Positions 16,496-46,602 of a stretch of DNA of 64,000 bases are shown here, in pieces. Source of the stretch: Vairimorpha necatrix. Taxonomy: Eukaryota. A program made the position numbers and the translations under genes. Location: the NCBI GenBank assembly GCA_036630325.1, contig CP142735.1, positions 806,001 to 870,000 of the forward strand, written 5' to 3'. Under the pieces are notes generated by a model that ran no database searches, was not told the origin of the DNA, and was given only the letters and a program-made list of their open reading frames with translations. How positions within the stretch are numbered: the first letter of the stretch is position 1; each line of letters opens with the position of its first letter.

Positions 16496-19400
16496 TGTCG
16501 AATGTTCCTTTATTTACGAATTGCATCGGGGTGAAAATATATAATATTTATAGAAGGATACGACACCTCTCCCCCCTAAATTGAAGTATCTGCTTTAACT
16601 CGTGTTTTGTTAAGCCTGTATACTTTTCCATTCTTTTTTACCACATAGGCATCGGGTAAAATTATTTCTGTGATCACGTATCCATCTTCCCAATTGCACT
16701 TGAACTTCCCGCTTTTAGTCTCACGATATATTAAAACTTTATCGCCCACGTTTAGCTTTTTCGCCACCTCTACTTTCCCTTTCACGATTGCTTTTTTGTA
16801 CTTTTCGAAGTTTTCATCGCGCTTACTCTTAGTTTCCTCCGCTGAGAATGTCACTTCTTCCTTGTCTAGCGCTTTGTCTACAGACAGCATCGGCAATTTA
16901 TTCTCCCTTAACATGAACGGCGATGTTCCTATGCTCCGATTATAAGACAGGTTGAGGCATCTCGTGGCTTCTGGAAGCTTGTTCTTCCAGCTTACCCTTC
17001 CGAAATCTGTAATTTTATTTAGTATCTTCATTAACGTCTGATTCGCTCTTTCTACTGCGCCTACAGTTTCGTGATGTTCTGGTGAACTGTATTGCCAGTC
17101 AATACCGTTCTTTTCGGCCAGGTCTTTGATGTCAGAATTTATAAATTCTAGCCCGTTGTCAGTCAAGATTCTTTCTGGAATGCCGTGTTTCTCGATAATC
17201 AATTGCTGGATTAATCCCATTATTTTCGACCCTGTTTTATAGTTAATAACAGCCGTCTCGACCCATTTAGAGTAGTGGTCAATAGCAATGAATATGAAGC
17301 TGTTTTGACCCGAAGTGTCGCATATGCGTCCTATGAGATCTATCACCCATATTTGGTTCGGCCTCTCTGATCGTATAACTTTGTTTTTTGTGTTTCGTAA
17401 TGGGTATCCCGATTTCAAGCACGTTTTACACTTTTCTACGTGTTCCTTGATGTCCTTATGCATTCCTGCCCATTTGTACCTTTGTGAAATCATGAAGCTC
17501 ATCGTACTAGCGCTAGCATGTCCAACGTCTAGATGGTAGGATTCTAAGATCTTCTGTCTGTCTTCATCGCTTGGTCCTGTAGCTTCGATGATATTTATAT
17601 CTTTCTCTGTCGGGGTTTGTCTGCTTAACCCGTCTGCTCCATTAACCTCTTCTTTTATGTAGGTTGATTGAAATGCATACTCCTGCAAATCATTGCCCAC
17701 CTCAGCAATCTACTGGTAGGGTTCTTAGCTTCCCATAGATAAGTCAGCGCTTTGTGGTCCGTCTTCAATATGAACTCTCTACCCAGGAGGTGGTGTCTAT
17801 AGTTCTCGATGCCTTTTACAACGGCCAAGAGTTCTTTGTCTGTTGTAGAGTAGTTCTTATGGGCTTTCTCTAAACTTTTGCTGAATGCACTTACGAAGTG
17901 CTCCTTCCCATCATCTCCAATCTGTGAGAGGATCGCGCCTATTCCCTGCTCTGACGCATCCGTAGTCAGTATAAACGGTTTCCTGAGATTAATCTTGTAT
18001 CTTATTGTCTCTTCTGTGAGAAGTCTCTTTAGATCTTCGAATGCCCGTTTCTCCTTTTTGCTGAGAGAAATACTCTTAACACTTCGCTTTGACTCTCCTT
18101 TAAACAGTTCGTAGAGAGGGGCTGCTATCGCTGATAAGTTACGGATGAACTCCCTACAGTAATTTATGAGCCCAAGAAACGACCGTAGTTGAGCAATATT
18201 CGTCGGCTCCTTATACTCGTTTATGGCTTTGACCTTCTCTGGGTCCGGTTTGATCGTCTTGTTTGTTACTATATTCCCTAGAATTTTAATTTCTTCTTTG
18301 AAGAAGTGGCACTTCTTCCTGTTAAGTGCGATTCCTGCTGCCTTAAGCTTACCCAATACGATTTCCAAGTGTTCACGGTGTTCCTGGTGATTTTTAGAAT
18401 AGATAATAATGTCATCCAAGTATGGTATGACGAATTTTCTGTTTTCTTTCACAAAAATCTTATCCATAGTTCTCTGAAAAGTAGCAGGGGCATTACATAG
18501 CCCAAACGGCATCCTGTTAAATTCATAATGTCCTCCTCTCCAGCTGAATGCTGTCTTCTCCTTGTCTACTTCTTCAAGGGCTATCTGATAATATCCCGAC
18601 GTAGCATCTAATGTCGAAAAGATAGTAGCGTCAGCTAGATCGTCGAGAATTTCATCAACTCGTGGGAGGGGGTATTTATCTTTGACTGTTATCTTGTTGA
18701 GCTCTCTGTAATCTATACAGAGCCCGATCGACCCATCAGGTTTCGTTACCGGAACAACTCTACTGTTCCAGGGGCTCCTACTATTTCTTATTACGCCCAA
18801 CTGCAAGTTCTTCTTGATCTGTTGTGTGATTTCCTCTTCAAAGTGCAGAGGGATCTTTCCATTTTTCTGGTAAATTGCCTTCGCTACTGTTGTCTCGATT
18901 TGATGTTTCCCCATGTTACAAAGTGTAAGCTCTGAAATTTCAGTTTTGAACATGTCATGGTATTTCTCTTCGATTGAGATGTAATTGACTTTGTTAATCA
19001 GTGAGCCTTTCTTGACTGTATTGGCGAATTTTCTGATCAGTTGTTCCAGTAATATGGGGTTCGTTCGTATAGCGTCAACTCCTAAGATTATGTAGTCCGG
19101 TGTCCGTTCTGTGACGTAAGGGCTGAAAGTAATTGAAGTGTTTTCCGTCCTAAAATTGATATTTAGACATCTTCCTGTAATCTCCAATGGTGTCCCTGAT
19201 GCTGCTCGTATGATCGTTGAAGATCTGGTAAATCTGATATTTGTCCCTTCGAGGACTCTTGCGGGTATCAGGGAGACATCAGCTCCGGTATCAATTAATG
19301 CTCGATGTCGTTTACGATTGAATTCTACGTTTATGTAGCAAGGGTTAGTGAAACAGCTGTTGATCTTGTAGTTTTCTATGGTGTAGGGTATATTTCCCTT

Positions 19401-20039
19401 CTTCGATGGTGCGACCTTCAAAGTCCTGTTATCTAGTGTCTCGTCCGTATTAGTCGTGTTACTTTTCATAGGGAATGCTATCCAAGAAACTTCCTCTGTG
19501 CGCCTCAGGAATTCACTCCAATCTTGGCATTGTCTAGCAAAATCATAAAGAATTGATTTGAGGACTGAAGGAGACTTCTTGATTACTATGAGGCTGACTG
19601 CTTTGTACTCCATTGTTTGTTGCTCTATAAGTGAGTTTCCTTTCCTGCAGAAGTCTATGAAAGCCTCTAGGTTGCCAAATTGTTGCGGTTTAACAAACTC
19701 GTCTAGAGTGGCCAGAGTTTTCTGTGAACTGTAAAATCTCAATTTTAGACTCTTAGTAACCTCTGCCAGATCAAGTTCTGACACCCGTTCAAATGCCATT
19801 GCTATCCATGAGAGAGCTGGCCCCCGTAGACCCAGGCAGATAAGTCTGGCGGTCTGATCTTCTGTCAGTCCAAAAACCCTCGCCGTGAACGTTGTGTCAC
19901 GCAACCATGTATTTATATCCTCTTCCTTCTTATCACTGAAGCAGCCAACAGTTTTTATCGCTGTCGCCATGTCGAATGCTCCTTTATTTACGAATTGCAT
20001 GGGGGTGAAAATATATAATATTTATAGAAGGATACGACA
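16496..20039 (-). mobile_element. Ty3/gypsy LTR retrotransposon A (3544 bp, 70-bp LTRs)
   Basis: LTRs at 16496-16565 and 19970-20039 (TGTCG...CGACA, 2 mismatches). TSD ATCTG, primer-binding site (PBS) TGGCGACAGCG, polypurine tract (PPT) AGGGGGGAGAGG. Confidence 0.95.
16576..20000 (-). pseudogene. Gag-PR-RT-RH-IN polyprotein of element A, one frameshift near 17688
   Basis: LIDTGA, YLDD, TDAS...TDHKAL, HHCC and DDE. Adding one T at ATG ATT T^G CAG restores RWAMILQEY and joins the two ORFs. Confidence 0.88.
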
Positions 20040-23411: not shown

Positions 23412-26400
23412 TGTTACAGGATGATAATCTAGTTACAGAGATTATCCTGTAATTGCTTTACTGTAGATACTTCCCTAAAGTATCTACTGTAAAATATTTA
23501 CTATAAATAATAAATAAATATTTTACCCATCTAAAAATATTATGAAAAGGAAGGAGAAGCTTTATTTAACAAATGGCGACAACGAAGATGATAAGGAACC
23601 AGTAGAGAAACAAAAGACAAGGAATACAGTGGAGATGTTAGAAAAACAATTAGCTGCAATGAAGATCAACATCGGGGGTACATACAACTTCAGAAAATTT
23701 GATGGTAAAAGGACGGAAGCAGAAGAGTTCTTACTACAATTTAAACCATTTAGAGAATCTTGGACTGAAGAAGAATATTTTGGTTTTGTAGAAACTAATC
23801 TTACTGGAAAAGCCCGACTCTGGTTTGAAGGCTCAAGATATAATGTGTTTGAAAGTGTAGTCGAGTTTGAACAACATTTCTTAGAATACTTCAGTCCCGA
23901 AGAAGTTTCTGGCAACAGTAAATTGTTGAATATACTATTACATAAGAAGCTGAGAGAATGTAATAACGAGATATTATGGTTAGAAATTTACTCGATACAC
24001 AAAAACATTACTATACCACTAAAAGATGTTATTAATACGGTAGTTATGAATATACCAGTTGGGAATGCAAATCGATACAGGGATTGTAAGAGTTGGATGG
24101 CAGTTTTGAAATTGGCAGTTAAGATAGATTCTGAGAATGAGAGTAAAGAACAATCTAAGATGCAAATTAGCAAGAATAAATCGGAAGATGCGAGAAGTAG
24201 TTTTCAAAAGAAATTGATTAGCTGTTATAATTGCAAAGGTCAACATTATAGAAGTAATTGTCCAGAACTATTAAAGAACAAATCGAATAATAAAATACAA
24301 ACCAATACGGGCGACAGAAATGATTATAAGAAGTGTTCAGATAAGAAACTGATGACATTAACATGTAGTAGTAAAGCAGCCAATGTCCCTAGATTTTTGG
24401 TGAAAATTGGCGGAGGAAAAGTACCAGCACTACTAGACTATGGAGCTGACATTAATTATATTAGTTACGACCTGGTGAAGATGTTAAATATCCCAATAGA
24501 TATGGAAAATAGAATTTCGGTCAATTTAGCAACTAGAAAGGATAGCTCGGTAGGCATGTTAAAAGCGTTATTGCGTGATAAAAATAATCAGCACGCATAC
24601 GAAACAGAATTTGCGGTAATGGAAGATCTTAATGAAAATATACTCATCGGTAGCATAACAAGTAGACATTTAGGCATTAAAGTTCATTGGGAAGAAAATG
24701 AAATTGAAATCTTTAATGATGGAACAAGGCTCAAATTGGAAACAGAAGAGTACAGTTTAAAATCAGTAATAAGCGAGGAAATACCCATGGAAATAGAGGC
24801 ATTAGAATGCAAGTTTGGTGAACATGAAGAAGTCAATAAAAATATTAAGTGCTTACTGTATAAATATATGAAAGAATCCGATAATAAGAAAGCCCTACCT
24901 TTTAGACATGATATTAAACTTAAATATCACAGTAAAGCTATATGTTGTAAACCATATAGAAGAAATCCGCAACAGAATCTCATAATTAAGAATAAAATTG
25001 AAGAGATGTTACAGAATGGATTGATACGAGAGAGCACGAGTAATTATGTTTCCCCTGTAGTGCTTGCACCTAAAAAAGACGGAGGTATGAGAATGTGTAT
25101 TGACTATAGAAAGTTGAATGAAAACACAATCAGTACGCCATACCCGATCCCTCACATGGATGAAGCAATAGATGCTATCCAAGGGACAGATATGTACTCT
25201 ACTTTAGATTTGGAGATGGGTTACCATCAGATCGAAATGAACCCAAGAGATATTCATAAAACTGCATTTATTGTAAAGCAAGGTGTATATGAATGGACTA
25301 AGATGCCATTTGGCTTAGTCAATGCCCCTTTTACGTTTCAGAAGATTATGAATTGGATATTTAAAGATATACTTTGGAGGAAAGTAGTTGTATACCTTGA
25401 TGATATTTTAATATTCTCAAGAGGGAAAGACAAACATGTCGACGATGTGAGAGAAGTCCTGGAAATTTTGTCAAAATTTGGACTCAGACTTAACATGAAG
25501 AAATGTGCATTCGCAGTGAGTAAAATTGATTTTTTAGGACACACTGTAGAGAATGGAGAACTTAAAATTAAATCGGACCAATTGGATAAGGTTAACACCC
25601 TAGAAAATCCAAAGAACGTCAGCGACTTAAGAAAACTTTTAGGATTTATAGTATATTTTAAACGATTTATACCATCATATACCATGAAGGCTATGCCGTT
25701 ATTAAAAAGGTTAAAGAAAGGTAATTTTATATTTGGAGACGAAGAAGAAAAGGCTTTAGAGCTCCTGAAACAAGAAATATTAAATGCCAAACCTTTACTT
25801 TTACCAGATATGAATAAGACATTTTATTTATATACGGATGCCTCGGACATTGGAATTGCGGGAGTACTTACACAATTTACAGATACGGGAAAAGAAATGC
25901 CTATAACCTGGATAAGTAGAACGCTAAATAGCGCCGAAATTAATTACACTACAACTGAGAAAGAGTGTTTAGCTATTGTATGGTCTATTGAAAAACTTAA
26001 AGTATATTTGTCTAACAATTTTATCATCAGGACAGATCATAGTTCCTTAATATGGTTAATGAAACAGAAAACACCTATAGGAAGATTGGCAAGATGGATA
26101 ATGAAACTGCAAAACTATAAATATGAAATCGAACATATAAAAGGTTCAGATAACGTTTTGGCTGATGTACTTTCACGTGGTGTATTAGAAAATAGCCAAT
26201 TAAGAAAGTGTCAAACAGTGGTTAAAAATGAAGAAAGAATAAATGTTGAAGAAGACAATGAAACAATAACAAAACTGATACAGAGAGCACACTTAGAGCT
26301 TGGCCATGGAGGTATAGATTCTACTATAATGTACATCAGAAATATTGCGAGTGTACCAAATATAAGAAACAGAGTAGTTGAATACATTCGTAACTGTGAA

Positions 26401-27479
26401 ACTTGTAGAAGATTTAGAGACAAGACGTTGCAAAATAATATTAGACGTGTGGAAATAAAAAGTCCGTTCTATATGATTGGGTTGGATATAGTTGGTCCTT
26501 TACCCACAACAGACGGTGGAAATAAATTTATTCTGGTAGGAACAGACTACCTAACTAAATGGGCAGAAGTGAGAGCTTTAAAAAGAAAAGATGCGGAATC
26601 TGTGGCGAAATTTATTTATGAAGAATTTTTATTGAGACATGGACCTCCGGAAGTAATCTTGACTGATCAAGGACTTGAGTTTAACAATAAAATCATAAAG
26701 AAACTGTGTTTAATGATAAATACTAGAAAGTCGTTTACAAGCGCCTACCATCCAAGATGTAATGGACAAACGGAGAGACTAAACCGTACCCTTATTGCAA
26801 GGTTGGCTAAGATATGCAATGGAAGATGGTCAGAGTGGGATATGTTCCTACCAATCGCGCTATACGCATATAGGATAACACCACTAATAAAATTCAAGAG
26901 TAGTCCTTTTAGATTGTTATATGGGAGAGAGCCTAAGGATATAACTACGGAGAAAGAAGATGGTGGAGCAGTATTTATAGAAGAAAATGATACACTTAAG
27001 AAGATCGATTTGTTACGGAAAAAGTTACACGAAAAGGTTATAGAAGATAGAAATAGAGACATACAACGCGCGAATGATAGAGTTAAAGGCAAAAATATTC
27101 AAGTAGGAGATGCGGTTATGAAGAAAAAGGAACCATTTGAAAAACTGAATAAGCTTGATGATAAATGGACAGGACCTTATCTGGTAAGAAGAAAATTTGA
27201 CTCTGGTGGTTTTGAGATCGAGGACATGTATGGAAAACTATTTCGGTATAATGAAAAAGACTTACAACTAATTGAGAATTCAGATCCCACGGATTGGGAG
27301 AGTTTAAAGAAAGGGAGTATGTTACAGGATGATAATCTAGTTACAGAGATTATCCTGTAATTGCTTTACTGTAGATACTTCCCTAAAGTATCTACTGTAA
27401 AATATTTACTATAAATAATAAATAAATATTTTACCCATCTAAAAATATTATGAAAAGGAAGGAGAAGCTTTATTTAACA
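23412..27479 (+). mobile_element. Ty3/gypsy LTR retrotransposon B (4068 bp, identical 160-bp LTRs)
   Basis: LTRs at 23412-23571 and 27320-27479 (TGTTA...TAACA). TSD AAGTT, PBS TGGCGACAACG after a 2-nt spacer, PPT AAAGAAAGGGAG. Confidence 0.97.
23542..27360 (+). CDS. Single-ORF Gag-Pol polyprotein of element B
   Basis: Zinc knuckle CYNCKGQHYRSNC, protease LLDYGA (atypical), YLDD, RNase H, integrase HHCC/DDE/GPY. The ORF starts in the 5' LTR and stops in the 3' LTR. Confidence 0.95.
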   Translation: MKRKEKLYLTNGDNEDDKEPVEKQKTRNTVEMLEKQLAAMKINIGGTYNFRKFDGKRTEAEEFLLQFKPFRESWTEEEYFGFVETNLTGKARLWFEGSRYNVFESVVEFEQHFLEYFSPEEVSGNSKLLNILLHKKLRECNNEILWLEIYSIHKNITIPLKDVINTVVMNIPVGNANRYRDCKSWMAVLKLAVKIDSENESKEQSKMQISKNKSEDARSSFQKKLISCYNCKGQHYRSNCPELLKNKSNNKIQTNTGDRNDYKKCSDKKLMTLTCSSKAANVPRFLVKIGGGKVPALLDYGADINYISYDLVKMLNIPIDMENRISVNLATRKDSSVGMLKALLRDKNNQHAYETEFAVMEDLNENILIGSITSRHLGIKVHWEENEIEIFNDGTRLKLETEEYSLKSVISEEIPMEIEALECKFGEHEEVNKNIKCLLYKYMKESDNKKALPFRHDIKLKYHSKAICCKPYRRNPQQNLIIKNKIEEMLQNGLIRESTSNYVSPVVLAPKKDGGMRMCIDYRKLNENTISTPYPIPHMDEAIDAIQGTDMYSTLDLEMGYHQIEMNPRDIHKTAFIVKQGVYEWTKMPFGLVNAPFTFQKIMNWIFKDILWRKVVVYLDDILIFSRGKDKHVDDVREVLEILSKFGLRLNMKKCAFAVSKIDFLGHTVENGELKIKSDQLDKVNTLENPKNVSDLRKLLGFIVYFKRFIPSYTMKAMPLLKRLKKGNFIFGDEEEKALELLKQEILNAKPLLLPDMNKTFYLYTDASDIGIAGVLTQFTDTGKEMPITWISRTLNSAEINYTTTEKECLAIVWSIEKLKVYLSNNFIIRTDHSSLIWLMKQKTPIGRLARWIMKLQNYKYEIEHIKGSDNVLADVLSRGVLENSQLRKCQTVVKNEERINVEEDNETITKLIQRAHLELGHGGIDSTIMYIRNIASVPNIRNRVVEYIRNCETCRRFRDKTLQNNIRRVEIKSPFYMIGLDIVGPLPTTDGGNKFILVGTDYLTKWAEVRALKRKDAESVAKFIYEEFLLRHGPPEVILTDQGLEFNNKIIKKLCLMINTRKSFTSAYHPRCNGQTERLNRTLIARLAKICNGRWSEWDMFLPIALYAYRITPLIKFKSSPFRLLYGREPKDITTEKEDGGAVFIEENDTLKKIDLLRKKLHEKVIEDRNRDIQRANDRVKGKNIQVGDAVMKKKEPFEKLNKLDDKWTGPYLVRRKFDSGGFEIEDMYGKLFRYNEKDLQLIENSDPTDWESLKKGSMLQDDNLVTEIIL

Positions 27480-27845
27480 AAGTTCAAAACACTTTTGAAT
27501 TTAAATGAGATAACTTCTAAATGTTTTTAAGTTTAATTTTACACCTTTTTCAAAATTAATATCGGTGAAAATTTTTGCAATTTTTCGCCGAAGTTTTAAA
27601 AAAATTATAAAAAACGATTCTGACGATATTTTGAAACTGAGTTTTACAAAAAGAATAATTATTCAAAAAAGTGCTAACATAAAGTATACGCATCTACAAT
27701 CATCAAATTGACAATTTAATCTATAAACGATACTTTAATAACATAAAAAGCCAAATTATATAGTGAGAAATTTTCAAAAAAATAAAAAAAATGGGGTTAA
27801 AAATTTAATAAAATTCTTTTATATACGCTAATTAAATAATGTTTT

Positions 27846-27970
27846 TATGTTACAAAAATTTTCTATTAATTTTAAAAATAATATTTTCTATAAATTTTAA
27901 AAAATAATATTTTCTATGTTAAAAAATTTTCTATTAATTTTAAAAATAATATTTTCTATGTTAAAAAATT
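27846..27970. repeat. AT-rich local tandem repeats
   Basis: Recurrent TATGTTA-AAAATTTTCTATTAATTTTAAAAATAATATTTTC units. Confidence 0.6.
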
Positions 27971-28082
27971 ATATTTGTTTTTGTAAGCTTATTTTTAATA
28001 AAATTTTATAAAATAAAAATTTTTACGAAAAAATTTAATTTATTTTGTAGTAAAAAATTTCAAGATATTTTCAGATATTTAT

Positions 28083-32911: not shown

Positions 32912-33115
32912 ATGTATATATTATTATTACTCAGTATTTGTGTAGAAACAACAAATGAAAGTGAAAAATCCAAAACAAATCATGAAAAAAGTGTTAATAA
33001 AAAAAAGAAGGTTCTTTATTATAATGAAGAAAAGTGCAGAAAATACGTTGATGAGTATTTTGATTTTTTAAATAAGTATAATTCAGAGGAATCAAAATCA
33101 TCTAAAAATAAATAA
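32912..33115 (+). CDS. Small, possibly secreted protein or truncated gene
   Basis: CCCCTTATG start, short hydrophobic N-terminus MYILLLLSICV, charged remainder. Confidence 0.4.
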   Translation: MYILLLLSICVETTNESEKSKTNHEKSVNKKKKVLYYNEEKCRKYVDEYFDFLNKYNSEESKSSKNK

Positions 33116-35146
33116 TATTTTTAATGAATTTTCAAATGTTCATAACAATTAAATGTTTTTGGTTAATTTTTATATAATTTCATCAAGTTATTAAGGAATA
33201 AAAAACATATTCATTTAGATAAATAATTAATTTTAAAGCAATTTGAGCTAGGTAAGATAAACATTTATTAAATTTTATACAAGATAAATACCGTTTAAAT
33301 TAATTAAAATATTATTTACACTCGTGTTAAATAGCTCTATTTGTGAAAATGCTAAGTCTAAGTTCTTATAATTCATTTTCCACTTAGATCTACCATTTAT
33401 AGCCATATCTAATATCAACAAAATTATTGATCTTAGATCTCATATGAATAAATTTAACAAATCCACTTATTATAGCTTAAAAAACATTATATAATGTAAC
33501 ATATACACATACTGTTATTTATATCATTCTAGATTATAATCAAAGCATAACGTAGTTATAGCTGTATTTTTGTAAAGTTAAGCATCGAAATTTAATACAA
33601 GCAATATTTATAAAAGCCAAAAAAATGTTTGTTTAGTGCATGTTATTTATACATGCAATTGTTTTTTAAGCTCAAAGCTTAAGTATTGAAGCTTAAACCG
33701 TTTCTGTATTTTGTTTTTATGTTATTTTAGAACATTTATCATTAAAGAGATTCAACTCAATATCTCATATTTACGGCAAATAATTAAAAGTCTTAGTAAA
33801 TATAGTATTAATCATATTACCTTTTAACATACAAATAGCGCCTTAAAAAAATTGAACGTATAAAGATTCCTTGCTATACTTAAAATGAAAACCTAGTACT
33901 AATTTTTGGAACACTTACAGCAATATTATGATTAAAAATAGGACAAACAATGTTTACATAAAAAAAAATTTTTTATATCGGATTTTCTTTATTTTGTTAC
34001 ATAATTTCAAAAAAAGTATATTTTATTATTTACATGTTTTTTATGCTAAAATTTTCAATATATTCATGTTTTTTTATTACTCAAGATCATAAAAATAATC
34101 AATAAAACAAGGATAAATACTTACATCTTATGCAATATAAAAATATTAAACCACAAACACATATTTAACATTGCAGCTGTCAAAATTGCATTTAAAATTT
34201 GATGAGGTTTAATTTATGTTGTTAAATTTTTTCAAAGTATACAAAAAGAAATTTCATAAAATTAATTAGATTTAAGATGGAATTTTATATATGCTGATTA
34301 AACGTATGAAATAAATGTTATTAAGATAAAGGAAATCCAACATCATTAAGGATTGTTTGAAAAAAGTTAAAGAAATTGCAAAGAACTTTCCATATTTAGC
34401 TGGTTAAAAGACACATTCCATTAATAATATATATATAAACACCCTAATTAGATAAAATATGAGTTTTTAAAAATTCGCATAGTTTCTTATTTCAAATCAA
34501 TTTCATTTTTCCTATAATTGTTATATTTCACATAATTTGTTTTAGATATATTATAACAATATATTCCAATTTTTTACGCATATATTATTAAGTTTACGTA
34601 ATGCATAGTTGTCTTAATTAATCTAACTAATAAAATATCGTGTGTCTATTCTTATAAAATCAATATATAAGATCTTTTACAACAAACTCTACTCAGGCAT
34701 TATATTGTAAAATATTCACATTTTAATTAAGCGATCTCTATTACGTTACAGATATAGAGATTTTGACAATAGTGTCTCTCCAAGTTTAATTAAGCAAATT
34801 TTAAATTGTATGCAGCAAATTATATAGTATGAAAAACGGCAAGAATAAAAGCAGATGCTATCTTCCTATTCGGGGGGGGCCGACTAAAAATATATACTTC
34901 ATGCAGAGATCACAAAAGATTGTTGCTTAAACTATCGAAACACCTAAGAAAAGGACTAATCACTTAATATATCTCAAAATATGTGTCAATATAGAATATT
35001 ATAAAACAACATGAATAAACAAAATTTTTTCATTGTAAGAAATATTTATCGTTTTTAAAAATGTGAGCACTTAAGTACAGTGGTTGATGCTGGGAGAATA
35101 TAAGTATACACTTTTTAATGTTGGATATTTTAAAAATTATCATTTA

Positions 35147-36462
35147 CGTGGGTTTGCGTTTTTTTAGTCCAACTTTTGCATTTTTTATAGTCCGAATTAT
35201 GCATTTTTATAGTCCAACTTTTGAAAAAAAAATAACAAAAAACCCAGAATTTGATATACAATGAATAATCAATAGAATTATGTGTAAATAATTTTCAACA
35301 TTAAATAAGATAAACTCGTTTTTCTGCCTTGCCATTTCTAGCCATCTAACCATATTAGTGTAGAATTCATTGCACGAAAGGCTAAAATCATTGTTCAGCA
35401 CTTGCTCTAAATCTGCTTCTACTGTATTATTTGAGTTTCGTATAGCACAAAACCTCGATTTTATCATAGAAAAAAAATTCTTCAATAGGATTAAGTTGTG
35501 GGGAATATGAAGGGAGAAAAAACATAAGATATGCTTAATTCTATTAGCTTATCCAAAACTTATCTTGAATGATGAAATTTAGCATTATCCATCATTTAAA
35601 TCTTTTGAGAATTTGTTTGGAAAAAATCTACAAGATGCCTTTCAATAAATTCGACGAATAGAGCAGAATTATATGCGCCCCTCCTCATTTCATATGCTAT
35701 AATATTCGATTTTGAAATTACGCAAAGACAACTTTATTTTTGCCTCGATTTGCGGGGACTGTTTTAAAGGCTTTTTTTAAGAAAACCCATAATGCCTTGT
35801 GGTATGGGCATTAAATCCATTTTCATCTAAAAAAATCAAATTTTCTAGTGAACACCCCGATATTTCCATGGCATATTCAGCTCTTTTATCAATTTTGTCC
35901 TGCGAATTACGCTCTGCGGGGATTAGAGATAGTCTTTTTATTGTAATATTGAGATATTTCAACTTTCGAGAAATATTAGACAAAGACATTGAAACATTTG
36001 ATAAAGTATTTAGTTATTCTTTGATTTCACTAAGAGTCCTGTCATTACTAAGTGACAATTATGTTTTTTAGCATAAGGTCGATAGGCTTTAATACACTAG
36101 GAGATGATACTTTGATACGATTTATTGTACTTGTAGAGCAAATAGATTATCCCTCTAACATTTTTCTATGTATCCTTCAATCTGTTTTATAATTAGATCT
36201 AATGTAGTAGCTATATCTTTTAATGTCAAGTTTTCATTTTTTATATGTTTTTCAATAAGTTTTAAGACATCTGGAGTGACTGTAGATCTTGGTTTTCTAG
36301 GCATTAGGGGGGAGGTTTCAAAAAAAGGCCTGGGAAATACAAAAAAATGGACTATAGAAATACAAAAAAGTTGGACTATAAAAATGCAAAAGTTAGACTA
36401 TAGAAATGCAAAAGTTGGACTATAAAAATGCAAAAGTTGGACTAAAAAAATGCAAAACCCTG
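35147..36462 (-). mobile_element. Tc1/IS630-type DNA transposon, decayed
   Basis: TA on both flanks. Imperfect TIRs (CAGGGTTTTGCATTTTTTTAGTCC) built from 22-bp GGACTATAAAAATGCAAAAGTT units. The transposase remnant runs from ATG 36304 (MPRKPRS) and shows IFLDENGF, MDNAKFH and YSPQLNPIEEFFS in shifting frames. Confidence 0.85.
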
Positions 36463-37353
36463 TAAAAAATTAAATAAAGCTACAATGTTTATTGTATAAA
36501 ATATAGAATTAAAAATAAGGTATTTTTATGAGACAGGACCACAAAGTCAACATCGATAGAGTCATTTAAATTTTGTCAAATTCTTAATTTAAAATAATAT
36601 TTTAATATGTATGTTAACAAAACAAAAAAAACACTTAAGGCAAAAACCTAATTATGTTTTCGATTGCCAGTCTGTCTCATAATTTTTTCTTTTTTATATA
36701 ATGTGATGCTTTTTAAATGTTTTGTAAGTATAACAAACAAAATGTTTAATTTGAGTTGTATATTAGAATTTTTTGTAGATATAAATCGCAAATTCGATAC
36801 TAGTTATAAATCATATTAATCACTATCTAATGTTTTTTTGTATTTATGTAAAACACGACATATAAATTCTGTATATAGTCTTTAAAGTATTTTACTTGTA
36901 AAAAAAAGGTAAGCGCTTATAAGTCGAAAGCGGTCTCATATATATAAGTTTTACAAGTAAAACTGAAGATATTAAAATTATCTACTAATTGCTGCAAAGT
37001 TAAGAATTTAGAAATTATTTATGTGATGATTCAGTGTTCTAAATCTTAAATAATCTATCTAAATTGGAGCAATATTAATCCATGTTATACTGAATAAAAA
37101 GACCATTTTTTACTAAATAATGAGGCCCTCTGAATGCTGTATAATTTTTTAATAAAATTTTTGTTTTTATATAAGAATTTTAAACTATTTCGGCCGTAAA
37201 TTTTATAGCTTATTTAGAACTTTTGTCTTTATTAATTAAAAACAAAAGGAATAACATTTTCAGTACATTTCTTCGGTAATTAATTTTGTTATACTTATTT
37301 ATCGTTATTTACACACATTATATTGTTTGAATGAAGTTGTATGTAATTATAAC

Positions 37354-40300
37354 TGTTGTTTATATAAGGATTTATCATTGAATAGGGGTTTATTTATTTT
37401 ATTATTTATAATCAACATCCCTCCCCTTATAGAATTAGCTCCTCGTCCACAAGTCTTTTTAGTTGCGAAGCATGTCTTTTGTAAGACTTGGTGCCAATTT
37501 TTATGCAATATGAATTTCCTTCCAATTTACTTAAATACAACCTTTTTTCCAATATCTCGGTTTTCCCTTTGTCACGTTTTCGTTCTTTATTAAAACCGTA
37601 TTCCCAACAGTAAAGACCTCTTCCTTCGGCAATTTCTCTGTTGCTTTTGAATAATTTAATATATTGTTAAATTGTGTTTTTTTAACCGTTTCTGCATATT
37701 CTTTATCTAAGGCTTCGTTTGGTGTACATCCCAACCCTACGTGATAAGAATTATTATAAATTAGAATAGCTTTCTTTACTTTTGTTTTTAAAAACTTGTC
37801 ACTTTCGTTTTTATATACCATCTCTTGTAGAGTTCTATTAAACCTTTCCACTCTTCCGTTCGATTGATGATGGAATGGTGTCGTGTAGTGTAACTTGATA
37901 TCATTTGTATTTGCAACATTTTTAACACAGTTGCTTAAATTTTCTTTTGAGCAATCCAAAACAAGAGTTTTAATTGGTAACTCTTTATTAATTTCCATTA
38001 TAAATTGGGCTATTTTTTGTCCAGACCTATCGTTAATACACTTAGCAAATCCCTTTCTGGTGTAGTAATCTAATCCTGTTATTATATAATTTTTGTCTAT
38101 AGGACCTATAATGTCTATTCCCACCTTTTCGCCTGGATAATACGCTGTTACGAATATAAATTTTTTGTTTTTCTTCGGATTATACATCTTACATATGGTA
38201 CAGTCAGCTATTGCCTTTTTGGTTAGCGATTTGATATTAGGCCATTTATATTCGTTTTCTAAATTATAAATAATTGTTTTTGCACCTCTATGTAGCATTT
38301 CTTTATGCTTTTCGAATATTAATTTAATTTTTTCTTGTTCTGATATAGGTTCACTTTCCTTCACTTCGTTAACAATATTTTCTTTTCCTTCAAAGCTCCT
38401 ACTAAGAGCGTCCACGTGTGACATTTCTTCACCTTTTCTATAAATCACTTTAAATATAAAGTTGCTAAGTCGATCTAGCCATCTGTGGATTCTCAGAGAT
38501 TTAATTTCTCCTTTGTTAAGTGCTTCCAGGGCCTTATGATCTGTAATGGCAGTAAATTCCTTTCCATATAGATAGTATTTAAAATGTTCCATTCCCCATA
38601 GCATAGCTAGACATTCTTTTTCACTTATTGAATAATTTCTTTCGGGAGGATTTAGACTTCTTGAAGCAAATGCGATTGGGACCTTGACTCCCTTGTCGAC
38701 CTGGGCCAATATAGCACCTAGACCTGTGTTTGACGCATCTGTTTCCAGGATAAATTCAAGATTGTAATTCGGCTGATGTAGCTCTATTTGTTTACTTAAT
38801 ACCTCCTTTAATTTTTCGAAGCTGTTTTGGTGTTTTTCTGTCCATATGAATTCTACTCCTTGCTTTAATAGATTGTATAGTGGCTCACATAACGTTGCAC
38901 AATTGCGAATGAATTTTCTATTGTAATTTATCATTCCTAAAAATTCTTGAACTTTTTTCTTATTCTCTGGTTTTTGAAATTCGTTTATAACTTCTATTCT
39001 CGATTTTTCGGCCGATATTTTATTTCTTTCGATATTGTATCCTAAAAATTTTATTTTATTAACTTTTGAAACTGTTTTCTTTTCGTTAATATTGAGATTG
39101 TTGTCCTTTAATATTTTTATTACTCTGCATAAGTTTCTATCGTGTTCCTCACTTGTTTCTCCGAAAATTAAGATGTCATCTACGTAAACGATACACGCCT
39201 TCCCTATTTCATCTTTTAGAACATGATCCATATATCTCTGAAATATGGCCGGGGCATTCTTAAATCCCATTGGCATTACTTTCCATTCATACAAGAAATG
39301 CTTAAATCGAAAAGCAGTTTTATGTTGATCCTTTTTCGCTAGAGGAATGTTAAAGAAACCATCTTTCAAATCCAGTTTTGTAAAAAATTCTTTGTCTCTC
39401 AAATTAAATACCAAGTGTTCTATATTAGGTAGGCTATATTTGTCTAATTCTACCAATTTGTTTAGTGCAACTAAATTAAGTGTTATTCTTATACTGTTAT
39501 CTGGTTTTACTACTGGGCGAATGTTATTTAGCCATGTAGACTTCGATGGGCCTATATAATTCATTTTTATCAAATTTTTTATCGTATCTTCCATTCCAGA
39601 TTCAAATTTCTTGGGAAAGCTAAATACTTTCTCTACAACTATAGCGTCTTTTTTTGTATTTATTTCACATTCATACTGATCCTTAGAGTTTATCATTACT
39701 TTAATTCCATCTTTTCCAATCAAAATTTTTTCTTTGGATACTTTTGGTAAAATAAAAAATTTTAACTGATATTTCGTATTTTTATAAGTAACGTCACATA
39801 AAACATGATACTTAACTTCAAAGGTTTCCTCAAGACAGGTTCTGAATTTCAGTTTGACATGGTTTTTTCTTCTTTTTAAACCAGCTTTTAATCTAACTGT
39901 GTCAGAAATAAAATTGTAGTTAGATCCTGTATCAAAGACTACTAAAAATTTTTTGTCTTCGATATAAACTAAATTCTCTTTATTGATAATCTCTTCTGAG
40001 TCTTCTAAGACTTCATTTATTTGAAGCTGCTTTTTGTTATCGTATTTCTGCTTTATTATATCATTTCTAACTTTCTTAGAACCATTACGACCAGATTTCA
40101 TATTTCCTTTTTCTTCTCTTCCCAAAATAGTCCTTATCTTATCGTTCAATTCTTTATCAATTTTTTCCATCATTAGAACTCGCTTAAGGTCGATATCATT
40201 TAAAGAACAACAGCTCGTTATGTATGCTCTTAAATTTGGAAATTCTCTTCTTATCCCGAGCATTACAATTTTCATAGATTCTTTTGAGTCCATTTTTACT

Positions 40301-40695
40301 ACTTTTGATTTCTTTTTAACTTCGTCAATGAAATCTTTTGCATTCTGGTCCTTTTTCTGAAAAAGGCGGTAAACATCCACTAGTTCAATTTCATCTTCTT
40401 TAAATTCTTTATACAGTGCTTCTTTCCACTTGTCATATGTTATAGAGGAACTTCTTGTATGTTCCATAAATGTTGAGTGCCATTCAATTATTTCGTAACT
40501 GGCTTTACTCAAAACATACTCAATTTTATCCAATGATTCCATTTTTTTAAACCATCTAAATATTTCATATCTCATCAATTCTTGGGATAAATTTTTCCTA
40601 TTTATACTGGGTTGATCATTATTCTCCACCATGTTGTTTATATAAGGATTTATCATTGAATAGGGGTTTATTTATTTTATTATTTATAATCAACA
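37354..40695 (-). mobile_element. Ty3/gypsy LTR retrotransposon C (3342 bp, identical 64-bp LTRs)
   Basis: LTRs at 37354-37417 and 40632-40695 (TGTTG...CAACA). TSD ATAAC, PBS TGGTGGAGAAT, PPT AAGGGGAGGGA. Confidence 0.96.
37427..40656 (-). CDS. Gag-Pol polyprotein of element C (1-bp frameshift near 37533 in the integrase C-terminus)
   Basis: VFDTGS, YVDD, ETDAS, HHCC and DDE. One extra T extends the frame (GCILSKLEGNSY...KRHASQLK) to a TAA at 37427-37429 that abuts the PPT. Confidence 0.88.
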
Positions 40696-41561
40696 ATAAC
40701 ATTATCTTGTTTTTCTCTCAAAGAATTTTATTGATTTTTTAGATTATTTTTTTTATTTAATAAGTTTTGTTTCTTCCCCGGACTCTAGAAACAAGATATT
40801 TTATGTTTTCGTATTGTATGAACATTTAAGGACATCTACTATATTGTTATCTAAAAGAAAACAATTTTAATAATTTTCTTAATTAAATTTTCTCCAAAAA
40901 TCTTAGATATTAATTAATGTCTCATATGTAATTTTGGCGAGGATTGGCTCACAAGTTTGATTTTGGAAAATATATCATATATGCATCGAAACCATGAAAT
41001 CGATAGTATATTATTATATTGTGTATTCAATAGTTGTATATATCAAATTTTAAATTTATATATTAGAACCATGAACAATGTTACAATTTCCATCAGAGAA
41101 CTCTTGTATTTTCTAAAACTCCTCAAATAAATTAAAAAGACAGTTCCTTTTGCATTTTTTCTCTTATACAATAAATAGTTGTAACAAGCAATTCATATGT
41201 ATTTTATAAGACTGCAAATTGATGTTCTTTATGTAATTGAAAAAGAAAAAGCAAATAAAATTAATATTAAAGTTTTATTTGGTAGTATATAATTTGACAC
41301 TTATTACAAAAAAATACTAATATGTTTGAATACCTCTATTGGTAATTTTTCTAATAACCTACATGTCATTTAAATCAATCAAATAAACTATAAAACAAGT
41401 CAAAATAAAATTTATGATAATAAGAATATAAGCAGAATATTAACTTGTTTGGGGCCTACAAAATGTCCAATGCTACTTTCGTTTTTGCTGAATATTTTTA
41501 ATTTCCAAAACTATACTATTTAATTTATTACGGTTTATAAAAAACCCATTAGACCCCAAGA

Positions 41562-42356
41562 ATGTTTATTTATTTCTTTTGTGCATTTGGAATAGAACAA
41601 AAATTAGATGTGTATCCAAGAACGTATGAACAAGCCAATAATACAAGTATCCCCTTACCATATTTAGAATCAAGATCTCGTCAATATCAATCTCCCATAC
41701 AATACAACAAACTATCTTTACATATGTTTGCTAAAACCCCGATTGCTAAAAAATATATTTTTAATGGAGATTACATTGGGTTTTTAAAATATAAGCTTTT
41801 TTACATAACCAAAGATCTAGCTAATAATAAAATTTATTACCCGAGTGGTCGATTATGTGACTTAAACAATCTAAATCATCGACTTTCAGTAAATAATATC
41901 GGAGATATAATAAGAAAGTGGAATCAAAAACTATATAACGTAGTTTCAAATACATTCAATTCTTTAATGTTAAATATACAAGACCTTGGACTAACTAAAT
42001 ATGAATTGTCAGTTTATGAAAATGACTTGGAATTAATTTCTAAAGTTTTAATAACGTTACATAAATTTACACCGTCTCCTATCGATTGGGGTTTCTCAAA
42101 ATCTTTCGCAATTTACCATAACAATCGCATAGCTGGAAAAGTATTCGATATTTTTTGTGAAATACCAATGAACATTATCTTACAAAACATTAGATACGAT
42201 TTAAATTTGTGTTCTAAGGCTGATGATTACAAAAAAATATTAGTGCAAGATTCAGTAAAAGATTTACAAAATCAAATATATGAACTTTCACAAGAAACTA
42301 AAATATATTTTGAAAGTATCAATGAAATGAATCTCATGTTAGATAAATGTAGATAA
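41562..42356 (+). CDS. Lineage-specific, probably secreted protein, family member 1
   Basis: ACCCCAAGAATG start, short hydrophobic N-terminus, colinear with 49055..49852 (IPLPYLE, YYPS, YHNN, PMNIILQNI). Confidence 0.8.
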   Translation: MFIYFFCAFGIEQKLDVYPRTYEQANNTSIPLPYLESRSRQYQSPIQYNKLSLHMFAKTPIAKKYIFNGDYIGFLKYKLFYITKDLANNKIYYPSGRLCDLNNLNHRLSVNNIGDIIRKWNQKLYNVVSNTFNSLMLNIQDLGLTKYELSVYENDLELISKVLITLHKFTPSPIDWGFSKSFAIYHNNRIAGKVFDIFCEIPMNIILQNIRYDLNLCSKADDYKKILVQDSVKDLQNQIYELSQETKIYFESINEMNLMLDKCR

Positions 42357-43383
42357 TAAAAAAAATTTTATTTAAAATTATTAGGTTATAATAAGTGAAC
42401 ATTATATAATATACATTTTTATAAAAACTTCTTGCTAAAAGACATATATTATATTATTTTTCCTGTGTTGTGTATAGGAACATTAAAATAAAAAAAAATT
42501 TATATTACAAATAGAGCTTAAATTAGTTTTCCAAAAAGCTTGTAACAATTTTTAAAACATTTATATTGTATTCGTGATATATTTTGAGAATTATGTTGCC
42601 ACAACCAAAATATTTACAAATGATTTCACGAAAATAAAACTAAAATTAAAGTTAGCGATAATAATGCTGCCATTCGTGTCGAATAAAGCAACATCAAAAT
42701 TAATAGAGTAAATTTTACATTTTATGTTTTTTTGTGTATGTAAATAAGGCTAGTCACAAAATATACTAAACTTTTCATTGTTTTAGAAGCATATAATAAT
42801 GCTGCTAGGGGAAAAACTTTCTATAAAATTTATATATATTTACATGAATCTCTGTTTTGTCGAAAAATAGAACCATAAATAAGACATAATAAAAGGGATG
42901 TTATATGATTCAATAGTAGTTGTGATGATTAAAGATATTAAATAGCGCTATTATTAATATATAGCGCAATATTCGGAATTTATATAGGTGTTACGTCGCG
43001 ATTTTCTTTGGTTGGGCCATATAGATATACTAATAGATATTAATGCACTTAAAAAAAACTTTTTCATAAAAAATATCGGGCACTTATTAAAAATTATTAT
43101 AAATTTGAACCGACTATTTTTCTATAAATATTTTTTAAAATAATTATTTCGAAAACCAAAACAAAAAGTATATGGATATATTTAAATATAATTTAGTTTT
43201 TTTAAAATCGCGAGATTTTACTAGTTCCGCGAATTGTAAAGACTGACGATGAAAGTAGATATTTTGAAGAATTATACTCTTCGTTTTTATTTTTATTAAA
43301 TATCAGCATAATATTTTTGTGCTTCTGTATACTGCACATTTAATTTGGTCTATTAATGTGTTGGATACCATTTTAATAATATA

Positions 43384-46300
43384 TGTCTTTATTTATCATA
43401 ATGGGGGATAGAAATTATACAAATATATCACATCCCCCCTTCAAGACGGTTAGTCTCATCTAATTTTCACATCTACCCCAAGCATACCCTTCAGATCATA
43501 ATGTCTCTTCTTCACAAGCCTACCATTACTAAGTTTTACAATATAAGAATCCTTTCCACACTTTTCAACAATTTTTCCTGTATCCAAAAATCTTCCTTTT
43601 TCATACTTATTAACACCTGCCAAATTTTCTCGTTTAGCTATTCTTACCAATTGACCTTTACTAAATTTTTCGATCTTTCCCTTTCCAAACCTATTACAAT
43701 ATTTCCCTATAGGGCTATTTTCAAGCATTACGTCTCCAGTTTTATCTTCAGTCGCTTCTAATGGTGTACATTTTATTCCCGTATGATAGCTCTGATTATA
43801 TATATCGATACTTTTATACACTTTACCTTCAAAAGTTTTCGCATCCGACTTTAAAATACTTTCTCTCAAAGTTCCTATAACACGCTCTACTCTTCCGTTA
43901 CTTCTATGCGCTTCTATACTTACTTGTCGGTGTATTATATCGAGATCTCTACAAAATTTTCTAAATTCCACGTTAATAAACTCTTTCCCGTTATCTGTAA
44001 TAATTTCTTCTGGTTTCTTCCCTTGCTCACATAATCTTTTCAAAAATCCAACAACATTATTACTTGACTTGTTATTTATAACTACTCCCCATACTCTACG
44101 TGTAAAATAATCGATAGCAACTAAAACATATTTCTTCTCATTTCTAAAGTCTATCAAATCTAATGCAACCTTCTCTAAGTATCTCGACGTATCTACAAAT
44201 TCACAACCACCCATATTTTTCCTGTTATATATCTGACATTTCTGACACTGTTTTATAACCTCGTTTATTTCTTTCTTTACTCCTGGCCAATAGTATTCTT
44301 CTCTCATTGCATAATAAACACTTGTCATGCATCTGTGGCCTACTTTTTCATGATATTCTTGGATTAATTGTCTCCTTATATTCTCAGGTGGTATTTCAAC
44401 TTTACGTCCTGAGTCAAATTGCCAATATTGCTTTTCATTCTCGGAAGAAACATGTGCTTTCCATTTACCTTCTGTTTGCTTGATTGTTCGCTCTTTATTT
44501 TTCATTTCTTTAATATCCTCTTCCATATTTATTCGACTCAACGCATCTGCTACCACCATCTCATCAGGTTTTTTATATTCCACGATAAAATCATATTCCT
44601 GTATCTTCTCGATTAAGCGATTTATTCTGTTATTATTAAAAAACGGTTTATTTCTTATCTCCACCAGTGCTTTGTGATCCGTTTATATTTTGAATTTCCT
44701 ACCTCTTAACTCGTATTTAAATTTTTCAATGCCCCAATATATCGCAAGCATTTCCTTTTCTGATATTCCATATCTTATTTCGGTAGGTGTTAGCTTTTTA
44801 GATGCCCATTGTATAGCAACCCATTCCCCATTCTCATTCTTCTGAAGTAACACCGCACCCAATCTCAAATTGCTAGCGTCTGTTCTTAGTATGAACTCCT
44901 TATTATAGTCCGGTAATCTTAGTCTTCCCATATTTCTTAACACATTTTTCATTTTAGTAAATTCCTCTTTCATCTCTTCCGTAAATTTCCACGAATTGCC
45001 ATTTTTCTTCAAACTATCTGTCATTTTCAACGTCAGCCCGGCATAATCTTTTATAAATGGTCTGAACCATCCAGTCAATTTTAGAAACCTCCTCAATTCC
45101 GTCAAAGTTTTTGGATCCGGATACTCCAAGGCTTCATTTTTCTTTATTTCGTCGGCCGTCATGTCTATTCCATTCAGCGTCACACCTAATAATTTTACTT
45201 CCGCTTGTATAAACTGTATTTTCCCAATATTTAATTTCATTTTATTTCTCTTAATTCTTTCTAAAACCTCTATTACTAATTCATCGTGTTTACGTTTATT
45301 GTTGGCATGTATTACTATATCGTCCATGTATACCTCAACACCATTTCCTCGCAAATCTTCAAAAATCATATTCATCGTTCTCTGTAGTATCTGTGGGGAA
45401 TTTTTGTATCCCATCACCATACTATTCCATTCGTAAACTTTTTTATTAAATTCAAACGCCGTCTTATGTTTATCTTTTTCTTCGATTTCAAAATGGTAAA
45501 ATGCTTCTTTGCAATCAACAACAGTAAATATTATCGACCCTTGCGTAGCTCTTATTATTTCTCTCATATTCGTTAGCTCATACGGGTCTTTCTCGACTAA
45601 ATCATTCAGCCCTATAAAATTACTAACTACTCTTACTTCACCACTTGGTTTAAGTATCGCTCTTATTGGGTTTCGCCATTCCGAAGACGATCTTCTTATA
45701 ATTTTTCTATTTTCTAAATCATTAATATATTCCTCAGTCTGTTTGATCAAAGCCTGTGGGATCGTCTGTCCCTTTCTGACTATCTTCTTACCCTCTGGAG
45801 TATCTATCTTACACTTCTCTAATGTACAATAACTTATAACCTCATCTCCTTGTTTAAAAACTTCTTCATATTCCGCTTTGAGATCTTCCAACGTAAATGC
45901 CCTCTTCAGTAATCTTCTTTTCGTCTCTTTATTGCTCGCATATATTCTTTCTTTATGTCTTCCATCACTATTATTACATTCCTTTAACTTAACTCGTTTT
46001 GTCTTTCCACTTGGTTTATATTCTTTATTATCATTACTGCTACTACAACTTTGGTTTTCGTCTAAATTTAAGTACTTATTAAACTTTTTATTATTTTCCT
46101 GATTATTGTTCCTTCCTACATAGCAGTTCCTAGCCATATGGCCAAATTTACCACAATTAAAACAATTCCTATTATTTCTTATTTCTTGTACTGTATTCCT
46201 TAAAATTAAATCTTTCTCTTGAATTTCTTTTCTTACAGTTTCTCTAACATTCTCAGCTATAACCTCAATAAGTTCTCTCCTATTTTCTTCTTCTTTTTTA

Positions 46301-46602
46301 GTTCTTTCTTCTCTACATATTTCCTCCTCTAATTTCTCAATTATTTTATAATATTCGTCCTCTTTACTAATTCTTTCTACCATGAAATTTTTTATTTCTT
46401 CACTTCCTTCCATAAATATTCTCTGCTTCCACAAACTGATTTCTATTTCCTCCATCTCCAAAATATACAATATTCTTTTAACTTCTTTTAATAACTTTTT
46501 GGCCTCTAGACCACAGTCCACACTTGTAAACTGACGATTCGGTATCGCCCCCATGTCTTTATTTATCATAATGGGGGATAGAAATTATACAAATATATCA
46601 CA
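43384..46602 (-). mobile_element. Ty3/gypsy LTR retrotransposon D (3219 bp, identical 49-bp LTRs)
   Basis: LTRs at 43384-43432 and 46554-46602 (TGT...ACA). TSD ATATA, PBS TGGGGGCGA, PPT GAAGGGGGGA. Confidence 0.95.
43456..46569 (-). pseudogene. Gag-RT-RH-IN polyprotein of element D, in-frame TAA at 44683-44685, no recognisable protease
   Basis: CFNCGKFGHMARNC, YMDD, RTDAS, KFKI*TDHKAL, HHCC and DDE. The two ORF-track pieces are in the same frame. Confidence 0.88.

Follow-up and report, generated by a model that had tools for sequence, protein, structure and literature searches.

Four long terminal repeat (LTR) retrotransposons of the Ty3/gypsy superfamily, here called A, B, C and D, lie in a 64-kb stretch of the genome of the microsporidian Vairimorpha necatrix (GenBank assembly GCA_036630325.1, contig CP142735.1, positions 806,001 to 870,000), and in all four the polyprotein reading frame opens within the 5' LTR, at an ATG, and passes through the LTR end and the primer-binding site (PBS). 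The whole 64-kb stretch is referred to below as the window; all coordinates are those of the window, in which the Ty3/gypsy region spans 16496-46602. The reading we consider probable is that each miniature LTR carries a host-type minimal promoter together with the start codon, in a layout that descends from an ancestral gypsy element of microsporidia.

The first start codons of the polyprotein open reading frames (ORFs) are found at 20000 (A), 23542 (B), 40656 (C) and 46569 (D), corresponding to positions 40, 131, 40 and 34 of the respective LTRs, and each is preceded, 18-27 nucleotides (nt) upstream and still within the LTR, by an in-frame stop. A CCC motif stands ahead of the ATG in every case, at a distance of 0 (A), 13 (B), 6 (C) or 3 (D) nt. 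Between this motif and the LTR end there is a single ATG per LTR, in the polyprotein frame in 4/4, the only additional ATG being one that the last base of the LTR forms with the TG of the PBS (the ‘junction ATG’). A TATAWA sequence precedes the CCC by 21-24 nt in A, B and C; D has TATATT/TATAAT instead. A first-pass annotation, made from the letters of the window alone, had already proposed a single polyprotein frame running from the 5' LTR through the PBS, as found here, and had ascribed the CCC-ATG arrangement to the promoter grammar of the host. The host genes of the same window agree with the latter claim: CCC occurs within 20 nt upstream of 12/19 host ORFs (mostly at 0-8 nt), as it does in 4/4 LTRs, compared with 155 of all 2210 ATGs on both strands of the window (7.0%), a background at which its presence ahead of all four LTR ATGs has a chance of about 2e-5. 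TATAWA is found at -18 to -21 in 3 of the 12 CCC-bearing host genes, with AAATTT-like tracts in others.

The microsporidian core promoter is described as a CCC-like motif directly 5' of the start codon, with an AAATTT-like signal farther upstream, and the 5' untranslated regions of E. cuniculi are given as shorter than 7 nt (PMC2803860); in Spraguea, the median distance from motif to start codon is reported as 2 bases (PMC4948709). The LTRs resemble such promoters in placing CCC 0-13 nt before the ATG and an AT-rich or TATA tract ∼20 nt further upstream. Unlike host promoters, the motif of the elements sits in a terminal repeat, and is thus duplicated at both ends and travels with the element.

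A-D are real autonomous-type Ty3/gypsy LTR retrotransposons of a microsporidian. Each of the four ORF sets at 16.5-46.6 kb is enclosed by a short direct-repeat pair, giving element sizes of 3544 (A), 4068 (B), 3342 (C) and 3219 bp (D). On the element strand, 4/4 LTRs start with TG and end with CA; the elements are flanked by 5-bp target duplications (CAGAT in A, AAGTT in B, GTTAT in C, TATAT in D), and in 4/4 a TGG-led PBS stretch lies 3' of the 5' LTR and a purine run 5' of the 3' LTR. These features, together with an empty site of D described below, bear out the earlier proposal that 70, 160, 64 and 49 bp are the true LTR lengths and not those of eroded repeats. Pfam searches recovered reverse transcriptase (RT), RNase H (RH) and integrase (IN), in this order, in all four, and a protease (PR) in A, B and C; for D the search gave no protease family above its threshold. 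The database matches of the C, D, A and B polyproteins are gypsy-type polyproteins. Each family encodes one Gag(capsid)-PR-RT-RNase H-IN polyprotein, and the non-coding share is only 3-7% of the element. No further copies or solo LTRs of the A-D families were found elsewhere in the window, and its only two tRNA genes (Lys-UUU, Glu-CUC) match none of the four PBS.

Element A (16496-20039, minus strand), delimited by its LTR pair and Pfam domains, is a broken copy in which a frameshift separates RNase H from integrase: PR-RT-RH is encoded in ORF 17655-20000 and integrase in ORF 16576-17700, with the frame change falling within 17604-17688 as judged against an intact 1141-aa protein that is 98% identical. 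Its 70-bp 5' LTR (19970-20039) carries TATAAATA at LTR positions 14-21, CCCCC at 20001-20005, the ATG at 19998-20000 and an AATAAA 13 nt from the LTR end. The PBS, TGGCGACAGCG (19959-19969), reads M-A-T-A in frame; among 28 aligned relatives A12 is invariant and M11 nearly so. The 3' LTR (16496-16565, 70 bp) differs from the 5' LTR by 2 mismatches over 70 nt, and the polypurine tract beside it (∼16566-16580) contains the ORF stop.

Element B (23412-27479, plus strand) contains an intact ORF for a 1272-aa polyprotein (23542-27360) that opens in the 5' LTR and terminates within the 3' LTR. The 5' LTR (23412-23571, 160 bp) has TATAAATA 24 nt ahead of the CCC and the ATG at 23542; a 2-nt spacer, AA, precedes the PBS TGGCGACAACG (23574-23584), which reads N-G-D-N. 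The 3' LTR (27320-27479, 160 bp) is identical to the 5' LTR and follows a purine run at ∼27306-27319. The part of the B LTR upstream of the CCC (its first 115 nt, 23412-23526) also holds three inverted repeats forming hairpins, with arms of 12 nt (92% complementarity), 24 nt (83%) and 12 nt (100%).

Element C (37354-40695, minus strand) likewise has an intact polyprotein ORF (37531-40656, 1041 aa). Its 5' LTR (40632-40695) shows the order TATAAATA, CCCC, ATG (40654-40656) within 64 bp; the PBS, which begins TGGTGGAGAATA (40620-40631), reads M-V-E-N, and the polypurine tract (37418-37429) adjoins a 64-bp 3' LTR (37354-37417) that is identical to the 5' copy over its 64 nt. In element D (43384-46602, minus strand) the polyprotein frame is split by one in-frame stop (44683-44685). 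Its 49-bp 5' LTR (46554-46602) contains CCCCC, the ATG at 46567-46569 and an AATAAA 4 nt from the LTR end; the PBS beginning TGGGGGCGATACC (46535-46553) reads M-G-A-I-P-N-R, and the polypurine tract lies at 43433-43442, next to the 3' LTR (43384-43432, 49 bp). The two D LTRs are identical over 49 nt; the raw repeat is 50 nt, a T following both copies by chance.

No Gag family was found by Pfam in any of the elements, the only matches being a zf-CCHC knuckle in D and a knuckle-like match in B. A fold search was made for A only, using an AlphaFold2 model of residues 1-225 built with 27 relatives. In this model (mean predicted local distance difference test score, 75.9), residues 11-174 are helical and the LTR-coded residues 1-10 are of low confidence, and Foldseek matched it to structures in the PDB of PNMA2 (best E-value, 1e-3), Arc, dArc1/2, the Ty1 capsid C-terminal domain and Ty3 capsids. 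A thus carries a real Gag with a predicted capsid fold, and the modelled capsid appears to begin right at the PBS-coded residues.

Independent evidence on the element ends comes from Logan contigs of three runs, aligned to window positions 26700-46699. One X1 contig joins 43377 to 46602, skipping exactly 3224 bases at D, with a 7-nt overlap that fits the sequence. As 3224 equals the 3219 bp of D plus one 5-bp duplication, this contig represents the empty site of D; the D insertion is therefore polymorphic, hence recent, and its 49-bp LTR is complete. Another X1 contig leads from the internal end of C through one 64-nt LTR to the internal start of C, as would be seen with tandem copies, with a one-LTR circle or with a collapsed multicopy assembly graph; the LTR is 64 nt in each case. 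The depth of X1 over C and D is many-fold above that of the flanking single-copy DNA, this being summed contig depth and not copy number. Recent mobility is evident from the identical LTRs of B, C and D, the intact ORFs of B and C, and the empty site of D. An X2 contig that ends at 40661, 5 nt before the C ATG, was considered as a transcription start and rejected, as its end coincides with a k=31 unitig break (LTR position 64-30+1). X2 depth spans orders of magnitude between bins, from 0 to ∼235,000, for which RNA, amplification or repeats are conceivable. The G run of the D polypurine tract (43440) differs by one base in 1 contig of X1 and 5 contigs of X2.

Protein searches with the C, D and A polyproteins and the first 1200 residues of B retrieved relatives from Vairimorpha necatrix (98% identical to A), V. 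apis, Nosema granulosis, Pseudoloma neurophilia, Pancytospora philotis, Enteropsectra breve and Nematocida; the closest named proteins to the four elements are those of Vairimorpha necatrix. Many relatives are unnamed and come from contigs of 3.0-3.8 kb that hold little but one ORF of 1000-1250 aa, including 12/12 full-length relatives of C (contigs of 3263-3727 nt). Their N-termini follow a common pattern, in which a short, M-led, non-conserved extension ending in D, N, H or Y is followed by the PBS-encoded residues. The final D, N, H or Y corresponds to an NAC codon, which fits an LTR ending in ..ACA. The PBS-encoded residues are MVE in the C clade (after an extension or at the protein start in 11/12 relatives), MA[TS] in the A clade, and MGAIPNR, MANTR or MAT.. 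in the D clade, MGAIPNR itself recurring in P0121, P0133 and P0175.

This pattern was counted in near-full-length relatives only (at least 1000 aa for C, 940 for D and 1080 for A), which were drawn from Vairimorpha, Nosema, Pseudoloma, Pancytospora, Enteropsectra and metagenomes. Extensions are present in 8 of 12 proteins of the C clade (3 start at the PBS-coded Met, 1 is of another kind), 14 of 29 of the D clade (9 and 6, respectively) and 18 of 33 of the A clade (9 and 6). Among all 74 relatives, 40 have an extension, 21 start at the PBS-coded Met and 13 fall in neither group; 61/74 therefore start at or upstream of the PBS-encoded residues, with extensions of 3-29 aa. In P0316 (42% identity), the only full-length relative of B, an extension of 17 aa leads into NGD, which is what the same PBS encodes in the alternative frame that B also uses.

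At the DNA level, a scan of genome_contigs with the A-clade alignment yielded 50 loci, of which eight were inspected for repeats and three (L004-L006) used; the remainder are more distant gypsy elements (30-46% identity) and were left out. L004 (62% identical to A) is complete, with two identical 75-nt LTRs (TGTCG..TTGACA) in which CCC abuts an ATG at LTR position 45; ten codons from this ATG come the junction ATG and TGGCGACGGCG, and the 1153-aa ORF ends at a stop within the polypurine tract. L005 (51% identity) has LTRs of 176 and 172 nt, with the ATG at position 129, 16 codons from the junction. Its pre-ATG motif is GGAGGG in the 5' LTR (180-200) and GGGCCC in the 3' LTR (3960-3980); in microsporidian promoters, CCC is described as being replaced on rare occasions by a GGG-like motif (PMC2803860). 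L006 (50% identity) was recovered in an internal-LTR-internal form, with an LTR of ∼117 nt, CCCC 5 nt before the ATG and 20 codons between this ATG and a junction that reads TTG, not ATG. The LTR start codon thus recurs in all three loci, and LTR length ranges from 70 to 176 nt among the A-clade families. Recurrence of the in-frame LTR ATG in other copies, which the first-pass annotation had itself set as its test, is seen both here and in the 40/74 extensions of the protein relatives. The miniature-LTR design fares less uniformly: it describes the four window elements (49-160 bp) and L004 (75 nt), but an A-clade relative has a 176-bp LTR, so that miniaturisation is not universal.

Other scans gave less. 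L019 falls in none of the four clades, and no relative turned up in viral_contigs with either C or D as the query. A metagenome scan with D returned L001-L003, none with an LTR pair: in L001 and L002 an RNase H fragment from a different element is joined in frame to the element's 5' end, with no readable LTR, and L003 consists of a 3' end only, in which a D-homologous polypurine tract is followed by a 49-nt TGT..ACA stretch with CCCATG, a single copy whose LTR end is unproven. Several of the contigs under study (L004-L006, L024 and L052, and those encoding proteins such as P0006, P0198, P0200 and P0212) are deposited in bacterial metagenome-assembled genomes (Clostridium, Leadbetterella, Aeromonas and others); these microsporidian-type contigs look like eukaryotic contamination of the bins.

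The segment between the ATG and the LTR end carries AATAAA in 5/7 LTRs (A, D, L004, L005 and L006), ending 4-25 nt before the LTR end; five or more AATAAA-bearing segments were reached in 12/5000 shuffles. Read by eye, the motif is in frame as Asn-Lys in all five, and an NK dipeptide occurs in 11/40 extensions of the relatives, against 0.6 expected from inner windows of the same length. This placement would fit transcripts that end close to the outer edge of the 3' LTR, and an R region extending from the transcription start to about the LTR end.

We therefore propose the following, as the reading favoured here. The LTR would act as a host-type minimal promoter, with its TATA or AT tract ∼20 nt ahead of the CCC, and transcription would begin at or just past the CCC, giving an almost leaderless mRNA whose first AUG is that of the LTR. 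R plus U5, from the start site to the LTR end, would then span only ∼20-50 nt; minus-strand strong-stop DNA would consequently be equally short, and the primer tRNA would anneal within coding sequence. The strong-stop lengths predicted, not counting the primer, are ∼20-24 nt for D, 30-36 nt for A and C and ∼45 nt for B. The AATAAA in the translated segment of most LTRs would direct RNA 3' ends to near the outer edge of the 3' LTR. Such a layout would most simply have been inherited from an ancestral microsporidian gypsy element, and not invented four times.

The initiating codon could instead be the junction ATG, with the LTR ATG incidental or minor and transcription beginning later in the LTR, a reading that we regard as unlikely but that draws on several observations weighing against the favoured one. 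The junction ATG, which the first-pass annotation overlooked, is in frame in A, C and D; its Met is nearly invariant in the A-clade alignment, 21/74 relatives are annotated as starting there, and it always has G at +4, a context described as favoured (PMC2803860). The near-universal CA end of the LTR and the TGG of the PBS already account for the conservation of the junction ATG, and some of the junction-Met starts may derive from contigs that, like Logan unitigs, are truncated ∼30 nt inside the LTR. In B and P0316 the junction ATG is out of frame, and in the A-clade proteins P0220, P0232 and P0264 and in locus L006 it is replaced by Leu (TTG), so that it cannot be the start in these elements. 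In its distance from the CCC, 0-13 nt, the LTR ATG resembles the starts of host genes; for the junction ATG of A, C and D this distance is 18-31 nt. Finally, the chance of meeting an ATG before a stop when going upstream from the junction is ∼0.18 from base composition, and in-frame extensions are seen in 40/61 relatives, well above that chance.

The first-pass annotation had described the four families as unrelated, which would imply that each arrived at this layout on its own by converging on the promoter grammar of the host. Much separates them: RT-RNase H identity among the four is 30-39%, no polyprotein similarity was detected among them outside the RT-to-integrase region, their LTR sequences show no detectable mutual similarity, and A/B, C and D differ in their PBS. 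A quick IQ-TREE run on 61 RT-RNase H segments (34 microsporidian-type and 27 others picked from the match lists) recovered A, B and D-proper as clades with Shimodaira-Hasegawa-like approximate likelihood ratio test (SH-aLRT) support of 99-100 each, and the C clade with 93. In the unconstrained tree B clusters with sequences from outside the microsporidia (SH-aLRT 87-91), a further point in favour of convergence. However, C and D are sisters (100) and A, C and D fall on one side of a branch (95), and an approximately unbiased (AU) test did not reject a tree joining all 34 microsporidian-type sequences (log-likelihood difference 1.33, p-AU 0.48). As every clade shows the layout throughout, fewer events are required if it arose once, in an ancestor. 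The families are thus distinct yet not unrelated; common microsporidian ancestry of the layout fits better, as the more economical reading, and four-fold convergence seems to us improbable. B by itself may have come to the layout by convergence.

That the LTRs lack a working promoter or a defined R altogether, the elements being inactive or transcribed by read-through from adjacent genes and CCC-ATG a by-product of AT-rich sequence, could appeal to the transcriptional overrun reported in microsporidia (PMC2803860) and to the broken state of A and D in the window, but seems very unlikely in view of the identical LTRs of B, C and D, the intact ORFs of B and C, the polymorphic insertion of D, the raised summed depth over C and D in X1, the CCC before 4/4 LTR ATGs (chance, ∼2e-5) and its recurrence in L004, L005 and L006, and a strand-transfer replication that requires R inside the LTR.

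Beyond the observations on the junction ATG, several points count against a host-type promoter and start codon in an inherited miniature LTR. The transcription start, the length of R, the poly(A) site and the initiating codon are all inferred from sequence. B and C have no exact AATAAA after the ATG; L004 shows an imperfect target duplication and L005 none. That the PBS-encoded residues are conserved follows from the constraint on the PBS as a nucleotide sequence and is uninformative on translation, and the counts of relatives come from related rows that are not phylogenetically independent. One X2 contig (about half of the depth at 46548) has a G run in the D PBS that is 1 nt shorter, which would put both the LTR ATG and the junction ATG out of frame; this variant may be a dead copy or a homopolymer error. 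The RT-RNase H tree is a quick search with short deep branches, and the Foldseek E-values for the A capsid are weak (best 1e-3), though the matches consistently point to one fold.

The window as a whole is AT-rich (GC 22-42% per 2 kb) and dense with intronless eukaryotic genes, including those for methionyl-tRNA synthetase, Rrp44/Dis3, tubulin, a kinase and an M16 peptidase. The first ATG of the tubulin ORF (14179-15585, minus strand) has no CCC ahead of it; the Pfam tubulin domain begins at residue 32, and the true start may be a downstream ATG. Two tandem acyltransferase paralogues (3862-4758 and 6895-7803; 72% identical) have CCC before the ATG in the second only. D is flanked by paralogous ORFs (41562-42356 and 49055-49852; 264 and 265 aa, 54% identical) that belong to no Pfam family and share the upstream context CCCCAAGA-ATG. 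An ORF of 223 aa on the minus strand (28083-28754), which has a CCC promoter and matches no Pfam family, shows an extreme summed depth of ∼235,000 in X2, where most of the stretch has tens to hundreds. The ORF at 30239-30730 (163 aa) encodes an ISXO2/IS1595-like DDE transposase domain and is probably the remnant of a Merlin-type DNA transposon; the surrounding 29.4-31.4 kb has high depth in both X1 and X2.

Elements whose Gag starts in the LTR are known from budding yeast. The GAG frame of Ty1 starts in the U5 of a ∼330-bp 5' LTR, after a leader of ∼53 nt. A-D resemble Ty1 in having an ORF that begins within the 5' LTR and runs on through the PBS; unlike in Ty1/copia elements, integrase comes last in A-D, which belong to a different superfamily, so that the resemblance is one of 5' organisation alone. 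Ty1 also has a long LTR and a real leader with dimerisation palindromes, whereas the LTRs of A-D are 49-160 bp and the predicted leader is a few nt at most. In S. cerevisiae, the Ty1 PBS is described as lying inside the GAG frame, where it can be altered by silent substitutions (PMC6844567), and the general statement in the first-pass annotation that LTR elements have an untranslated leader after the PBS therefore has a known exception. A Gag frame that starts in the LTR and takes in the PBS is thus not new in principle.

Very short LTRs, too, have precedents. FRetro129, a SMART element of grasses, is described as a 292-bp non-coding, non-autonomous element with 85-bp LTRs, TGT..ACA ends, a 5-bp duplication and a TATA box in the LTR, with candidate autonomous kin of 4.9-5.8 kb whose LTRs are 105-117 bp (PMC3281118). 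A, C and D share its very short LTRs but are coding elements, of 3.2-3.5 kb with LTRs of 49-70 bp. The LTRs of Bombyx mag are ∼77 bp. At 49-70 bp, the LTRs of the 3.2-3.5-kb coding elements A, C and D are shorter than any of these.

A-D belong to the same superfamily, and come from the same host phylum, as the Nbr elements of Nosema bombycis and the elements of Anncaliia algerae. Microsporidian gypsy elements are reported to encode a single Gag-Pol polyprotein (PMC13174016), and the Anncaliia algerae families are assigned to microsporidia-specific Ty3/gypsy clades (Parisot et al. 2014; PMC4202319). In the literature on microsporidian elements that was covered, which took in few subscription journals and no supplements, we found no LTR length, PBS or start-codon position, and a prior description may exist.

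A more far-reaching proposal, to which we would give somewhat less than even weight, is that these are the most compact autonomous LTR retrotransposons known (3.0-3.6 kb). Their LTR, down to 49 bp, would have shrunk to about the size of the host core promoter and would combine integrase attachment ends, a TATA/CCC promoter, the start codon, R and a poly(A) signal read in frame as Asn-Lys; strong-stop DNA would be ∼20-35 nt, and priming and packaging signals would lie wholly in coding sequence, in a layout ancestral to a phylum-wide radiation and overlooked so far. The default minimum LTR length of LTR finders is 100 bp, and elements of this kind are annotated in microsporidia as ‘endonuclease’, ‘reverse transcriptase’ or ‘krab-a domain’ genes; we propose that they have been overlooked because of such defaults (at least 100 bp) and because of their annotation as ordinary genes.

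If the layout is as proposed, these elements would set a lower bound for the necessary content of an LTR, and would show a retroelement adapting to a host with minimal promoters and nearly leaderless mRNAs. A very short R and strong-stop DNA would be predicted, as would primer-binding, dimerisation and packaging signals that overlap coding sequence. Such elements escape standard LTR detection, and estimates of the repeat content of microsporidian genomes, as well as LTR-based dating, may be biased.

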